From a virus: a stretch of 44,307 nucleotides of DNA. The notes beneath the pieces are model-generated. The model was given only the letters and a program-made list of their open reading frames with translations, was not told the origin of the DNA and made no database searches. Of the stretch, positions 11,341 through 37,192 are shown piece by piece. A program made the position numbers and the translations under genes. Position 1 is the first letter of the stretch. Each line of letters opens with the position of its first letter. The stretch lies in UHGV virus genome UHGV-0213691; one strand, written 5' to 3'.

Positions 11341-11371
11341 TTGTTTCTCTCCTCTCGTTTGGTATGGGCTA

Positions 11372-11400
11372 ACTATAATAGCGAACTATTCACTTGTCAA
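11372..11400 (-). promoter_or_regulatory. Leftward early promoter (TTGACA-17-TATAGT) with operator AATAGCGAACTATT (11377-11390)
   Basis: Consensus -35, 17-bp spacer; in divergent control region. Confidence 0.6.
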
Positions 11401-11464
11401 TGGGCTTTTCTAAAATAATTAATATGGTACTATTCACATATCAACTGACTAAGGAGTAATCGAC
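11401..11464 (+). promoter_or_regulatory. Rightward promoter/operator region for the HTH gene (degenerate operator AATATGGTACTATT 11421-11434; RBS AAGGAG)
   Basis: TACTAT -10-like hexamer at 11428-11433 but no clear -35; strong RBS 11451-11456. Confidence 0.35.
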
Positions 11465-11680
11465 ATGCAACCATCCGAACTAGGCATCCGTGTAGAACAA
11501 CGCCGTAAAGAACTAGGCATCTCCCAGCGCCGTCTTGCGGTCCTGGCCGGCGTTTCCCAGGGCGCGATTAACCAGCTTGCGCTCGGGGTAACTCAGGACG
11601 TCCGCCCGGCGACGCTGTTTAAACTGGCGGAAGTGCTGCAAGTAGACGCCAAGTGGTTGGCGTTCGGTGAAGGGGCTTAA
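11465..11680 (+). CDS. XRE-family helix-turn-helix transcriptional regulator (Cro/CI-like)
   Basis: 71 aa; HTH signature ELGISQRRLAVLAGVSQGAINQLALG; divergent from leftward early operon. Confidence 0.75.
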   Translation: MQPSELGIRVEQRRKELGISQRRLAVLAGVSQGAINQLALGVTQDVRPATLFKLAEVLQVDAKWLAFGEGA

Positions 11681-11698
11681 CGCCCCTTTCTTTTTACC
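11672..11698 (+). terminator. Intrinsic terminator after HTH gene
   Basis: AGGGGC-TTAAC-GCCCCT hairpin followed by TTCTTTTT. Confidence 0.55.
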
Positions 11699-13965
11699 TA
11701 TTCCAAATCCTCCGCTGTCACCACCAGCATTTCATTCGGTTCGTATATTGTCTTCGGAATCTTGTTATCCGTTATCCTGGTGTTAAGCCGGTAGCGGCCA
11801 GGTATTATCTGATTGTTTTCGTCAGTCCCCGGAACAAGATACCCGGCCTCAACCATTTTCTTAATCTTCCCGCGTTCTATGGCTTCTTTGGAGTTAAACG
11901 CCTTTGCGTTGGGGTCTGACTGAGCGAGCTTATTCGCTGCGGCCACCGTGATACCTTCATTGCCGTTGTAGGTTCCTTCTGCCAGTTCAAACGCTGCCAG
12001 TATCGTGGCTTCCGAACTGTTGACGGCGTTCTCTACGGTTTTACGTACGTTTTCTTTACCTTCCTTTGTCAGCCCTTCTTCCCGCTCTTTCTCCTCGTCA
12101 GTTTTGAACGGCTCGAAGCCCCACGGCATCAGTACAAGCGCCTTGTGCGGTTCAGGCAGGTCGAGGTTTACGATTGTGCCGTATTCCTCTGTGCTACCCA
12201 GGAACTCAACCGCGCGATACTCTTTCGGCGGCGGGGCTTCACGGAACTGTACTGACTCCAACACCATACCAACCGTCTTCTGTTGAGGCCCGTGCTTAAA
12301 TTTAGAGTGGTATACGTTTATCTGGCGGTCGGTAGCGCGTTCGATTGTCAGCTCCACGTCGACGCCCGCATACAGCGCCCCACTGCCACGGGCCTTCTTT
12401 CCACCCTTCGGCGTATGGTGGACAACGCCTACCGCAGCTTTAGTCGCATCACGTACTTCTTTCAGGATGGCAATGACTTTACCCATGCCGATTGCCGTCG
12501 ATGAACTGTTCTCGTCGAACTTATCAATCGTCAGGGCCAGCGTCTGGTTAAGGGTGTCGAATGCGACCATGCCAATTGGCTCGTCACCCGCAGTTTCACG
12601 CATTAACTTAATCAGGTTTTTCAGTTTTCCGACTTCGCCCATGTCGATAACATGTACATAATCTTTACCTTCCTCGCCATATTTAGCCGCGAGTGCATCT
12701 ATACGTGTGCGGGTAGCTGCGCCGCCCTCACCGTCGATATAAAAATGGTGGCAACGCTGCGTATCAGCTCCCGCAAACCGGTATCCTGCGGCGCTAAGGT
12801 ACATCATCCCCAGTGTATAAAACGATTTGTACGTGCCAGATTCCCCGACGATATCCCAGATACAATCTGATGGCACATACCCTTCGACGACGAAATCAGC
12901 CTTTACCGGTTCCGGTAGCTCGTCCTCCTCTGGGTCCTCGTCGTCTTCTAGGTCGTCGAGGCTGCATGAAACTGATTCACGCGCGCCCCAGCCAATTGCC
13001 TCAGCGACTTCACTGAACGGCAGCCCAGTCGCATCGCACGCATACTTCCACACCTCTTTCGGTGACATGCCTTCGGTTGCCGTAATGTCGGTGTCGTGAA
13101 TCATGGTTACGTTAGGCGCTTCGTACCCTTCACGTGGGAAGCATAGCAGGAAGTCGTCCGGACGCGGCGTCGGGTCGCTGTAGTTCTCTGCGTGTTCTGG
13201 CGTAGCTGGCATCTTCAGACCGCGGGGCGTCATGACGCCACCATACTCGAACGCCAGTGCTTCGAACGCGTCCGTAAACGCGGTGCGCAGTTCTTCCGGT
13301 ATCTGGTAGTCAGATGCGCTGCTCACCTCGTAATCCGGTACGCCTTCCAGTAACTCGTCAGGGTCAATCAGGTCGTTTCGGCGCGACCAGATAACCTGAG
13401 AGCCGACCGGTGGCAGGTACATCGGCTGGGACAGAGTAAACCCGCTGCGGTCCGCGCCCATGCCTTTGAAGAAGTGCTCCAGCAACCCGTGACGTACGCG
13501 GATGATGTCACCGCCTTCGACCGGGCGGGCCAGCGGCATGACGACGCGAAAGCGTGGAGACTCATCGGTATGGGATGCCGTGGTGTAAACGCACATGGCT
13601 TTACGGCCTCGCTTAACCAGGCGCACTGCTTCCTGGTACTCTTCCGGCGTTGCGCTGTCGAAGTCAAGATACGCCAGTGACGATTTAGTTACAGACGCGT
13701 CACAGCGATAGAAGAAGCCTTTACGCGCATGCTTAAAGTCACCTGTTTCCGGGTCTTTTACGGTGCTGTGTGTCGAGTCGCACGCGGCGGTGATATATCC
13801 CGGCGCGGTCTTCGGGTTAACCCCATCACGGACAGCATCAAGCGGCTGGAGTAGCTCTTTCAGGTCGTCCAGTGTTGCCGTGTGAGTGGTTCTGACGTTT
13901 ATATCCTTTTTCTCTGCCCGCGCGTTGCGACGGGACCACGAGTAGGATAAAATTACATCGGACAT
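11698..13965 (-). CDS. Bifunctional primase(-polymerase)/helicase
   Basis: 755 aa; N-terminal AEP-like motifs YLDFD, ASHT, RFRVV; C-terminal RecA-like ATPase Walker A GESGTYKS and Walker B MVAFDTL. Confidence 0.7.
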   Translation of the reverse strand: MSDVILSYSWSRRNARAEKKDINVRTTHTATLDDLKELLQPLDAVRDGVNPKTAPGYITAACDSTHSTVKDPETGDFKHARKGFFYRCDASVTKSSLAYLDFDSATPEEYQEAVRLVKRGRKAMCVYTTASHTDESPRFRVVMPLARPVEGGDIIRVRHGLLEHFFKGMGADRSGFTLSQPMYLPPVGSQVIWSRRNDLIDPDELLEGVPDYEVSSASDYQIPEELRTAFTDAFEALAFEYGGVMTPRGLKMPATPEHAENYSDPTPRPDDFLLCFPREGYEAPNVTMIHDTDITATEGMSPKEVWKYACDATGLPFSEVAEAIGWGARESVSCSLDDLEDDEDPEEDELPEPVKADFVVEGYVPSDCIWDIVGESGTYKSFYTLGMMYLSAAGYRFAGADTQRCHHFYIDGEGGAATRTRIDALAAKYGEEGKDYVHVIDMGEVGKLKNLIKLMRETAGDEPIGMVAFDTLNQTLALTIDKFDENSSSTAIGMGKVIAILKEVRDATKAAVGVVHHTPKGGKKARGSGALYAGVDVELTIERATDRQINVYHSKFKHGPQQKTVGMVLESVQFREAPPPKEYRAVEFLGSTEEYGTIVNLDLPEPHKALVLMPWGFEPFKTDEEKEREEGLTKEGKENVRKTVENAVNSSEATILAAFELAEGTYNGNEGITVAAANKLAQSDPNAKAFNSKEAIERGKIKKMVEAGYLVPGTDENNQIIPGRYRLNTRITDNKIPKTIYEPNEMLVVTAEDLE

Positions 13966-14023: not shown

Positions 14024-14257
14024 TTATTCCAGGTCTTCTAAAGTGGCTGTCATTCCGCGAACTTCGGCAACGGCACTATATTTCCCACCAACATTTTTCA
14101 CGGCACCAGATTTAACCAGTACCCTCAATGACCCTTCAATAATGGCAGAACTATAGTACTTAAAATAACTGCGGCGCAAGTCGATAACGCTGCACGACCC
14201 TTTTTTACGTGTTAACGAAACGACCGCCGTAAATACGCGTGACTGGAACTCGGTCAT
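14024..14257 (-). CDS. Hypothetical protein (77 aa)
   Basis: ATG start overlaps upstream gene stop (ATGA). Confidence 0.45.
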   Translation of the reverse strand: MTEFQSRVFTAVVSLTRKKGSCSVIDLRRSYFKYYSSAIIEGSLRVLVKSGAVKNVGGKYSAVAEVRGMTATLEDLE

Positions 14258-14424
14258 TTCACGTTCTCCTTAATCCACGCTTCCACCTTCTCCGGGTCAA
14301 ACGTACCTGGCTGACGGCGACCCATAATGCGAATACAGCAATCCGGGAACTTCCCGCTCTTTAACCAGTTATTCAGCGTGCGACGAGTAACTCCTATACG
14401 CTCCGCTACCTCATTCTGTGTCAT
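14254..14424 (-). CDS. AlpA/excisionase-like HTH DNA-binding protein
   Basis: 56 aa from ATG 14424 with GAGGG RBS (track start 14457 is TTG); MTQNEVAERIGVTRRTLNNWLKSGKFP. Confidence 0.55.
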   Translation of the reverse strand: MTQNEVAERIGVTRRTLNNWLKSGKFPDCCIRIMGRRQPGTFDPEKVEAWIKENVK

Positions 14425-14456
14425 TCTCAAACCCTCATTATCAGTTAACGAAACCA

Positions 14457-14485
14457 AGTATACATTGCGAATAATGGGAAATCAA
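14457..14485 (-). promoter_or_regulatory. Candidate leftward promoter (TTGATT-17-TATACT)
   Basis: Hexamers with 17-bp spacer read on minus strand, just upstream of ATG 14424. Confidence 0.3.
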
Positions 14486-14575
14486 ACATAATCGCACCTA
14501 TTGACATTAAGAAAATCTTCGTTTAAGGTGCTTCTATATCTTAGTTACTTTGATTCCTGTTCACCTTGTAAGAAT

Positions 14576-14607
14576 GTTTAACCCGTGCGACAAGCAAAGG
14601 GTTAAAC
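14576..14607. other. Stem-loop (9-bp stem GTTTAACCC/GGGTTAAAC, 14-nt loop) in noncoding region
   Basis: Perfect inverted repeat; no flanking ORF. Confidence 0.4.
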
Positions 14608-14762
14608 ACAGGCTTACTGAACATGAGAATTATCGTAACTTTCCTTCCTAAGTATCTCCGGTTGCCATGGGCAAGCTCTATTCTCATCGGCAGCATATCT
14701 CTTAAGTATATGATTTTCTTAATGTGCCGTAGATTCGCAACCGTAAAAATGTAACGATTATT

Positions 14763-14790
14763 GGGCAGGCTTAAGGCCTGCCCTTTAGTT
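14763..14790. terminator. Hairpin GGGCAGGC-TTAA-GGCCTGCCC followed by TTTAGTT (terminator-like)
   Basis: Stable hairpin in 450-bp noncoding region; short T tract on plus strand. Confidence 0.4.
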
Positions 14791-14855
14791 ACCAAGTAAT
14801 AAGAATAAAGGCGCAACCTTCCCCAAAGAATCACAACGGCAACGTAACTATTCTC

Positions 14856-14884
14856 TTGCACACCCCAACATAATAGGATACTAT
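14856..14884 (+). promoter_or_regulatory. Rightward promoter (TTGCAC-17-TACTAT) with operator AATAGGATACTATT (14872-14885)
   Basis: 33-bp block TTGCACACCCCAACATAATAGGATACTATTCAC, near-identical to promoters at 27937-27965 and 37164-37192. Confidence 0.6.
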
Positions 14885-14918
14885 TCACTTATCGAAACGA
14901 GACAGAGGAGTGGGTGTT

Positions 14919-15110
14919 ATGTTTAAGAAGGGTCAGTTAGTGAAAACTATATATGGTAGCTTCGGTATTATTGAAAAGAAATCGGCAGTGTACCGAAGTT
15001 CTTATGTTGTTAGCTTACTCAGGGAGCATGGGTTAAGTTCAGCGGCGTATTACCGAGAGTATGAAATGAAACTCATCGGCAACAATTTTAAATTCAAAGG
15101 GGTGAAGTGA
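14919..15110 (+). CDS. Hypothetical protein
   Basis: ATG 14919 with AGAGGAG RBS (track start 14910 is GTG). Confidence 0.45.
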   Translation: MFKKGQLVKTIYGSFGIIEKKSAVYRSSYVVSLLREHGLSSAAYYREYEMKLIGNNFKFKGVK

Positions 15111-15295
15111 TGGGTGAATTAATTTACGACGTATATGTAGGTGGTAGATTCAGTTATTCAACAAGAAGCAGAGGCGAGGCGTTTGACCATTGTGTTGCGT
15201 TAGCAAAATTGGGTTTCAACGCAGAATTTAAATCAAGAACGGCATCGAATCATGATGCTCGTGCCGACGACTCTGAGGGAGGTTGCCGTGAATAA
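15110..15295 (+). CDS. Hypothetical protein
   Basis: ATG overlapping previous stop (TGATG). Confidence 0.4.
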   Translation: MGELIYDVYVGGRFSYSTRSRGEAFDHCVALAKLGFNAEFKSRTASNHDARADDSEGGCRE

Positions 15296-15891: not shown

Positions 15892-15937
15892 CAGGTGGTG
15901 TAACAGGTCAATAGGTTACTATTTTACTGAGTGACTT

Positions 15938-15970
15938 ACGCTGCTGTGTAGCAGCGTATCATTTTTCTCA
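15938..15970 (+). terminator. Intrinsic terminator
   Basis: ACGCTGCT-GTGT-AGCAGCGT hairpin followed by ATCATTTTT; operator-like AATAGGTTACTATT sits just upstream at 15910-15923. Confidence 0.6.
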
Positions 15971-24946: not shown

Positions 24947-24975
24947 ATAGTACCCTATTATACTGGTGTCTGCAA
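24947..24975 (-). promoter_or_regulatory. Moron promoter (TTGCAG-17-TACTAT) with operator AATAGTACCCTATT (24946-24959)
   Basis: Same conserved architecture as 27937-27965 and 37164-37192. Confidence 0.55.
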
Positions 24976-27936: not shown

Positions 27937-27965
27937 ATAGTACCCTATTATGTTGGGGTGTGCAA
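27937..27965 (-). promoter_or_regulatory. Moron promoter (TTGCAC-17-TACTAT) with operator AATAGTACCCTATT (27936-27949)
   Basis: 33-bp block identical to the promoter at 14856-14884 except one base. Confidence 0.6.
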
Positions 27966-37163: not shown

Positions 37164-37192
37164 ATAGTACCCTATTATATTGGGGTGTGCAA
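37164..37192 (-). promoter_or_regulatory. Island promoter (TTGCAC-17-TACTAT) with operator AATAGTACCCTATT (37163-37176)
   Basis: TTGCACACCCCAATATAATAGGGTACTATTCAC, near-identical to promoters at 14856 and 27937. Confidence 0.6.

Follow-up and report, generated by a model that had tools for sequence, protein, structure and literature searches.

The stretch of DNA analysed here, hereafter the window, is the 44,307-nucleotide virus genome UHGV-0213691, read on one strand from 5' to 3'. Positions 14425-14918 of this window form a divergent junction between a leftward replication/early gene block and a rightward gene block. We conclude that this region is probably a divergent early control region combined with the gene for a structured non-coding RNA of ~255 nt. 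In order along the + strand, the region contains a leftward promoter (P_L), a rightward promoter (P_R1), a long hairpin (H1), invariant motifs predicted to be single-stranded together with small helices, a 3' module carrying a terminator, and a second rightward promoter (P_R2). The source is a lytic Kagunavirus-like siphophage of the subfamily Guernseyvirinae, an Escherichia coli phage of the Kagunavirus type: positions 14200-15150 are ~94% identical to the Kagunaviruses Escherichia phage GertrudWoker_Bas73 (Bas73) and NTEC3, and match 373 phage records, of Guernseyvirinae. Phages of the Guernseyvirinae (Jerseyvirus, Kagunavirus) rank with those most commonly isolated and applied in biocontrol and therapy directed at Salmonella and E. 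coli. Each feature listed in an earlier reading of the region, referred to below as the initial annotation, was found at its given coordinates and exceeds chance.

Promoters and terminator of the putative RNA gene

The proposed transcription unit begins at P_R1, a rightward sigma-70-type promoter read in the sequence of the + strand at 14501-14529 (TTGACA 14501-14506, 17 bp, TAAGGT 14524-14529), with a predicted transcription start at ~14536. The two hexamers had been read correctly in the initial annotation. Conservation of P_R1 was assessed in copies fetched via an anchor inside the RNA, so that their retrieval was independent of the promoter. TTGACA was present at the homologous place in all 55 of these copies. 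The hexamer 17 bp further on was TAAGGT in 32 copies, TAAGTT in 21 and GTAAGT in two; the last two copies, probably of the SS3e type, likely contain one extra spacer base and thus have an 18-bp spacer. The P_R1 site is annotated as a promoter in the records of phages Jersey and AG11.

P_R1 lies back to back with P_L (14457-14485, - strand; TTGATT 14485-14480, 17-bp spacer, TATACT 14462-14457), and 16 bp separates the two -35 boxes. P_L, a leftward early promoter that the initial annotation had put forward as a candidate, was recovered by the promoter scan, is conserved in all relatives and was found by the same scan at the same site in phage Jersey. Its CAAGTATAC and ATAATGGGAAATCAA are invariant among 15 aligned phages. 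P_L is predicted to drive an HTH_17 gene, the gene for a 77-aa winged-helix protein and the helicase-primase gene. The HTH (helix-turn-helix) gene was classed as early in a time-course RNA sequencing (RNA-seq) study of Kagunavirus (PMC12645636).

The terminator scan revealed, on the + strand only, an intrinsic terminator, GGGCAGGC-TTAAG-GCCTGCCC followed by TTTAGTT. Its GC-rich 9-bp stem occupies 14763-14783 and its tail runs to 14790, in agreement with the terminator-like hairpin previously assigned to 14763-14790. The hairpin has an energy of -19 kcal/mol (z = -4.3 as compared with shuffled sequences) and is enclosed by GUAAC (14751) and GUUAC (14788). The suggestion that a ~250-nt RNA could run from the TTGACA promoter to this hairpin gains support from the invariance of the promoter, from the + strand terminator and from the compensatory changes in H1 described below.

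A rightward promoter had also been marked at 14856-14884. It is present as P_R2 (14857-14885, or to 14889 with TCAC; + strand), which reads TTGCAC-ACCCCAACATAATAGGA-TACTAT-TCAC with a 17-bp spacer and scores under the promoter-scan threshold. It belongs to a recurrent, phage-specific promoter class that had escaped notice. The core of this class, CAACATAATAGGATACTAT, occurs four times in the window as compared with 0.02 expected, and the four copies with their flanks share ~35 bp (TTGCAcACcCCAAyATAATAGGrTACTATTCAC). By motif match the copies are at 14857-14889 (+), 24947-24965 (-), 27937-27955 (-) and 37164-37182 (-), and the ATGs that they head are at 14919 (+), 24904 (-), 27732 (-) and 37135 (-); each copy heads a transcription unit, 35-60 nt 5' of a Shine-Dalgarno (SD) sequence and ATG. 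Conservation of the spacer points to a phage factor that recognizes these sites, which may therefore be middle promoters. The P_R2 module is 100% identical in phage K1G, although the element upstream of it differs there. The rightward genes thus have a promoter of their own, and the P_R1 transcript would be a separate unit, ending at the terminator that lies between the two promoters.

Some further features of the promoter sequences were noted. Degenerate copies of the P_R2 class are found at 11376-11400 and 11420-11444 (+). A direct repeat resembling TCAGTTAACGAAAC occurs at 14441-14454, 14885-14898 and 14933-14946. The first copy overlaps the predicted transcript start of P_L, the second that of P_R2, and the third is inside the first rightward gene; the copies at the P_L and P_R2 starts could be operator sites. 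There is also a perfect 14-nt inverted repeat between the P_R1 spacer (14504-14517, ACATTAAGAAAATC) and the start of the 3' module (14712-14725, GATTTTCTTAATGT). Functional pairing of its two arms was considered and rejected, as the repeat is absent in Salmonella phages and carries single uncompensated mismatches in Bas73 and NTEC3.

Folding, exchange and distribution of the predicted RNA

The predicted 260-nt RNA (14536-14795) folds at -79.9 kcal/mol, as compared with -54.9 +/- 4.4 kcal/mol for shuffled sequences (z = -5.7). Its 5' domain is H1, an irregular hairpin of 99 nt (14543-14641, +; -38.1 kcal/mol, z = -6.7 against shuffles). The initial annotation had described a hairpin with a 9-bp stem at 14576-14607. 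A hairpin is indeed present there, with a perfect 10-bp inverted repeat (14575-14584/14599-14608), but it is just the tip of H1, the apical hairpin P5 (14575-14608, +; -17.4 kcal/mol, z = -6.3). Folding of 36 distinct H1 variants gave a common architecture. Helix P1 is AGUUAC/GUAACU. Helix P2 is GAUUC/GAAUU in E. coli phages and AAGUUU/AAACUU in Salmonella phages, and P3 is GUUCA/UGAAC or GUUUCA/UGAAAC, with an extra U on the 5' arm and an extra A on the 3' arm in Salmonella phages. The 5' internal loop is an invariant CYUU (CCUU in the window). P4 occurs as GUAAG/CUUAC, GUAAA/UUUAC, GUAAU/AUUAC, GUGAG/CUUAC and GUGAG/CUCAC. The sequence of P5 is wholly different between lineages and always pairs (CGCUUAA...UUAAGCG, CCGCC...GGCGG, GCUUAGCG...CGCGUUAAGGC).

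Base pairs were counted in a MAFFT alignment (A1) of 34 sequences with 18 alignable H1 pairs. In this alignment 99.8% of the H1 cells were paired, as compared with 25-50% when the partners were slid by 1-3 columns, and the observed pairing or covariation score was reached by none of 500 shuffles. Three pairs change on both sides: CG in 20 sequences and UA in 14; AU in 20, GU in 12 and GC in 2; GC in 22, AU in 9 and UA in 3. These counts indicate that H1 is under selection for base pairing.

H1 is followed by a pyrimidine-rich linker, CUUUCCUUCCUAAGUAUCUCC (14639-14661, +), which is predicted to be unpaired in the minimum-free-energy fold and is near-invariant in E. coli and Salmonella phages. 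The linker resembles an anti-SD sequence and includes the motif UAAGUAUCU. A second copy of YUUAAGUAUCU is present at 14699-14711, forming a direct repeat (TCCTAAGTAT / TCTTAAGTAT) whose copies are 54 nt apart. Central helices are predicted within 14662-14730 (+); the candidates are UUGCC-AUG-GGCAA or a longer UUGCC...GGCAG, and CGGCA (14688-92)/UGCCG (14726-30). In the 11-pair UUGCC...GGCAG helix 98.9% of the cells were paired. Its five variable pairs all change on one side via G.U and there are no double changes, so that this helix is weaker evidence than H1. The central and 3' helices vary on one side only, and the downstream UGCCG partner for CGGCA is kept in all three of the alternative 3' modules described below.

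A small hairpin, TTGCCATGGGCAA followed by GCTCTATTCT (14662-14684), was flagged as terminator-like in the window and also in Jersey, and may mark a point within the RNA where transcription pauses or ends. The words GTAAC/GTTAC are over-represented genome-wide (139 copies as compared with 95.7 +/- 8.3 expected), and five copies lie in 14544-14848, as bases of H1 and of the terminator hairpin.

The RNA appears to be assembled from exchangeable parts. Past ...CUUAAGUAUCUGA (~14712) the 3' sequences split into three unrelated modules. Module A (14713-14792, +), a swappable 3' domain ending in the terminator, is found in the window and in 42 of 52 copies; module B (GGGGTGGGC-TAAC-GCCCACCC) is found in fEg-Eco06 and K1G, and module C (GCGCACTTGCC-TTAC-GGCAAGCGC) in Jersey and SB3. 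The 5' domain is also replaceable. K1G retains CCTATTGACA, which is followed by an unrelated folded insert of ~200 nt (L015, phage K1G, 1195-1400) and then by module B; the 286-nt stretch comprising the insert and module B folds with z = -3.1. Bas72 has a third type of 5' domain (L169, Bas72, 860-990), joined to module A exactly at TTTCTTAATGTGCCG. These two alternative folded non-coding inserts occupy the same slot, downstream of a rightward promoter, and each is linked to a different small protein. Homology of the window RNA with the K1G or Bas72 elements was rejected, as there was no covariance-model match.

A covariance model built from 34 copies found a single copy in the window (207 bits) and none elsewhere in it. 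The 184-nt RNA core matches 376 phage records (326 from Salmonella, 42 from Escherichia and a few others); wherever the taxonomy line was read, the copies belonged to Guernseyvirinae. The core is also present in 23 IMG/VR contigs and 11 metagenome contigs. In Salmonella Jerseyviruses the non-coding stretch is 76-80% identical to that of the window, and the BLAST block over the helicase-primase gene and the region averages 68-70% in the same comparisons. Rfam 15 gave no match at the gathering threshold in the whole window or in four relatives, and at E <= 10 the matches in the window were at chance level only, the best sub-threshold one scoring 20.7 bits as compared with a gathering score of 70. 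The window lacks tRNA and tmRNA genes, and a literature search found no paper dealing with this region. By these searches the RNA appears to be a new family, specific to Guernseyvirinae. Several hundred sequenced genomes carry the element unannotated or mis-annotated as a hypothetical protein.

Each type of 5' domain appears to travel with its own neighbouring small protein. The 77-aa protein is found in 374 records as compared with 376 for the RNA core, with an almost equal breakdown by organism name. The K1G element and K1G ORF41 are found in nine records each, with the same organism breakdown and, among the matches listed, the same phage names. AlphaFold2 predicts the 77-aa protein (predicted local distance difference test, pLDDT, 84.7) to be a winged helix whose acidic tail is disordered; comparison of folds gave weak, generic hits to the T4 MotA N-domain, LexA and RPA32C (E of at least 5e-3). 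The family forms three clusters among 1.8 billion representative proteins and is confined to Guernseyvirinae. A similar C-terminal ending is seen in the 77-aa protein (LEDLE), the helicase-primase (...AEDLE) and K1G ORF41 (...RDLE), and may be a shared interaction tail; BLASTP found no similarity between the 77-aa protein and the helicase-primase C-terminus.

Proposed function and alternative explanations

We propose that host RNA polymerase would start at P_R1 (14501-14529), near 14536, and transcribe the ~255-nt RNA rightward. Transcription would stop, at least partly, at the terminator at 14763-14790, and the rightward protein genes would be served by P_R2 (14857-14885) further on. The RNA would consist of a type-specific 5' domain, with H1 followed by the invariant exposed motifs CUUUCCUUCCUAAGUAUCU and CUCUUAAGUAUCUGA, and of a 3' domain that is an exchangeable hairpin/terminator module. 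We infer that it is made early, as a discrete species, and that it acts as RNA, its hairpins presenting invariant single-stranded motifs to a partner. This partner is most likely a protein of the same cassette (the 77-aa winged-helix protein or the HTH_17 protein), a host factor or a host mRNA. The CCUUCCU stretch could pair with SD sequences. The mode of action that we favour is that of a trans-acting RNA, which would present CUUUCCUUCCUAAGUAUCU and CUUAAGUAUCU to a protein or RNA partner. Transcribed from what appears to be one of the first promoters active after infection, a conserved structured RNA of this kind could regulate the early programme or the takeover of the host. Hypotheses that can be examined genetically follow from the modularity of its 5' and 3' domains and from the strictness with which it is inherited along with the winged-helix protein, and the three promoters and one terminator defined here would be useful for the engineering of these phages.

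Phage small RNAs (sRNAs) with their own sigma-70 promoter and intrinsic terminator include lambda OOP, P22 sar, prophage DicF and IpeX. In Pseudomonas phages, sRNAs have been found by ONT-cappable-seq (PMC9163698). The proposed RNA resembles such sRNAs in being a short non-coding unit in an early or regulatory region, with a host-type promoter and a GC-rich hairpin and U run (recognized here from sequence), and in combining stable hairpins with conserved single-stranded stretches. It differs from them in its much greater length (~255 nt), in the predominance of a single 99-nt hairpin, in not being antisense to a phage gene and in having no Rfam 15 match.

A number of observations weigh against a discrete, trans-acting RNA. 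P_R1 is absent from the promoter-scan output, because its -10 hexamer fits the consensus at just three of six positions, and the Kagunavirus RNA-seq study covers annotated genes only (PMC12645636). The terminator has a short tail (UUUAGUU), and a U run is missing from modules B and C. In phage Jersey the scan found neither a terminator nor a scan-level promoter after the core and before the first gene; in some relatives, therefore, the RNA may be just the 5' leader of the rightward mRNA. The diversity of H1 is carried by few lineages, so that its covariation counts represent few independent events. H1 also folds nearly equally well on the minus strand: the mean energy is -36.0 kcal/mol for the plus strand and -34.4 kcal/mol for the minus strand, and only 25 of 36 variants fold better on the plus strand. 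It is therefore mainly from the direction of promoter and terminator that the strand is assigned; the other grounds are that the scan found no minus-strand promoter inside the region and that G.U intermediates occur. No antisense target above chance level was found in the rest of the phage genome (best match 10-11 nt, E of at least 2), pairing with the left-operon mRNA (-25.6 kcal/mol) was no better than for 12 shuffles (-25.5 to -32 kcal/mol), and no RNA homologue or target was found in 5,426 E. coli genomes. Finally, the RNA and the small protein are less than 500 bp apart, so that their co-occurrence could be mere linkage.

Because Jersey-type relatives lack a terminator after the core, the main alternative is that the element is a cis-acting leader of the rightward early mRNA, in which the 14763 hairpin is an attenuator with controlled read-through. 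We consider this unlikely. Read-through could be controlled by the nascent RNA itself, as in HK022 put, or by a type-specific protein that binds H1, as in lambda N/nut. A leader would be consistent with the position of the element between an early promoter and a terminator, with the weak terminator tail, and with the Jersey-type arrangement, in which the first gene comes after the core without an intervening terminator or scan-level promoter. The GUAAC/GUUAC words, found five times in 325 nt, could pair alternatively, and the type of 5' domain changes together with the adjacent small proteins, in the manner of nut and N. However, the rightward genes have their own P_R2 directly upstream, and it is kept at 100% identity where the 5' domain of the RNA has been replaced. 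The co-varying proteins have DNA-binding-type folds (winged helix, HTH_17) rather than folds known from RNA-binding antiterminators, no motif like boxA/boxB was identified, and there is no covariation for an alternative antiterminator helix. The likeness to lambda nut/N and HK022 put, drawn from textbook knowledge, is positional only: in each case an early promoter is followed first by a structured RNA and then by a terminator. As with nut/N, the types of 5' domain travel with particular small phage proteins. In contrast to these systems, no N-like arginine-rich protein was identified, the element exceeds nut and put several-fold in size, and the downstream genes have a promoter of their own.

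A related reading, distinctly unlikely in our view, is that the 5' domain and the winged-helix/HTH proteins constitute a type-specific RNA-protein cassette, exchanged between Guernseyvirinae in at least three versions that share no homology. The protein would recognize the long hairpin of the nascent or free RNA, creating a phage-type-specific switch. Such a switch might act on read-through into the rightward genes, on the start of replication or on discrimination between co-infecting relatives. If this were true, strictly lytic phages would possess an N/nut-like or immunity-like specificity system whose two components are a winged-helix protein and a 100-nt hairpin.

The initial annotation had also suggested a replication origin, and this suggestion was not supported. 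In this reading, which we judge very unlikely, H1 would adopt a hairpin or cruciform form in DNA, or else the P_R1 transcript would activate or prime replication, and the winged-helix protein would recognize the origin. The region does adjoin the helicase-primase operon, its GC content is 0.43 as compared with ~0.51 for the genome, and the cumulative GC-skew minimum lies at 14-15 kb. H1 is nearly equally stable on both strands, and the element is co-inherited with a winged-helix protein that some records label a replication protein. The skew minimum, however, coincides with the switch in transcription and coding strand and is therefore uninformative. The region contains no iterons or repeat arrays, only short families of two or three copies. 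It contains two one-mismatch DnaA-box-like sites, and the number of such sites genome-wide (39 as compared with 31 +/- 5.6 expected) is that expected by chance. The P4-type iteron sequence TGTTCACC occurs once and is not enriched, its genome-wide counts being at chance level. The element is bracketed by an invariant consensus -35 box and a + strand terminator, and its unpaired linkers are conserved as much as its stems.

Nor does the element follow the helicase-primase. The helicase-primases of the window and K1G are 97% identical throughout, C-terminal domain included, and yet the two phages have unrelated elements. Bas73 and K1ind1 share the element of the window but have 43-57% identity to it in the last ~150 helicase-primase residues. 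The element and the C-terminal domain do not co-vary, which means that this domain does not have its cognate site here. Recognition of an origin by the 77-aa protein is conceivable but has no positive support. The phage P4 module (alpha primase-helicase, ori/crr iterons, CI RNA) is similar in having a large primase-helicase near an AlpA/Vis-type HTH_17 protein and a regulatory non-coding RNA region; here, unlike in P4, the helicase domain is AAA_25 and the RNA is divergent from the replication operon and not in its leader. As in transcription-activated or R-loop origins such as T4 oriF/oriG and the ColE1 RNA II primer, a promoter is followed by a structured transcript beside replication genes. 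In contrast to those origins, the region yielded neither a DNA-unwinding element nor a countertranscript promoter, the RNA would end at a terminator, and the element does not co-vary with the helicase-primase.

That the region encodes a protein, either a 115-aa minus-strand open reading frame (ORF) with a GTG start (14541-14888) or a small plus-strand ORF, is hardly credible. The 115-aa frame is open in the window, Bas73, NTEC3, K1ind1 and BUCT825, and appears as a hypothetical protein in some GenBank records, but it stays open (95-118 codons) solely in close Kagunavirus relatives; in fEg-Eco06 and all Salmonella relatives it is interrupted, even though the nucleotide identity is 76-80%. Net length differences over its span among E. 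coli-phage copies include 1, 3, 5, 10, 13, 19, -2 and -4 nt, so that indels break the frame, and variable columns fall at codon positions 1/2/3 in the numbers 49/45/37, without a third-position excess. It has no Pfam match and no SD sequence before the GTG, and the annotated ORF lengths disagree between records (321, 216, 288 or 147 nt, or none). The other candidate, a 43-aa plus-strand ORF, has an unconserved ATG that is ACG or ATT in relatives. Both candidates were rejected on these grounds, in line with the earlier view that the region holds no credible ORF. The region is thus non-coding, and its annotation gains by the removal of a spurious gene.

Gene setting and further observations

The region is flanked on the left by three leftward genes. 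An HTH_17/AlpA-like protein of 56 aa (Pfam HTH_17, E = 2e-7) is encoded at 14254-14424 (-), with its ATG at 14424, and the 77-aa winged-helix protein, which has no Pfam family, at 14024-14257 (-). Both of these small early genes are co-inherited with the 5' domain of the RNA. The helicase-primase (755 aa, - strand) has an AAA_25 domain (RepA/DnaB-like; Pfam). Its gene is a mosaic: the C-terminal ~150 aa (11698-12150, -) are swapped independently of the type of RNA and small protein. On the right, small rightward genes begin with an ATG at 14919 (+).

A second stretch, 11341-11697, was considered as an alternative origin candidate and proved to be a small XRE-type gene with promoters. The ORF (11466-11681, +) encodes 71 aa of Cro/CI type (XRE-like HTH), its translation having been read by eye, and converges on the helicase-primase gene. 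A hairpin, GGGGCTTAACGCCCC, with a T run lies between the two genes, and promoter-class motifs are found upstream of the ORF.

In Salmonella phage Ent2 (L006, 756-1761), and likewise in VSt10, PVP-SE2 and 5sent1, ~1 kb is without an annotated gene. In Ent2 this stretch has no ORF of more than ~45 codons wholly inside it. The stretch holds the RNA core, module A, a P_R2-like module, module C and remnants of deleted early genes, together with a terminator homologous to window positions 15937-15958.

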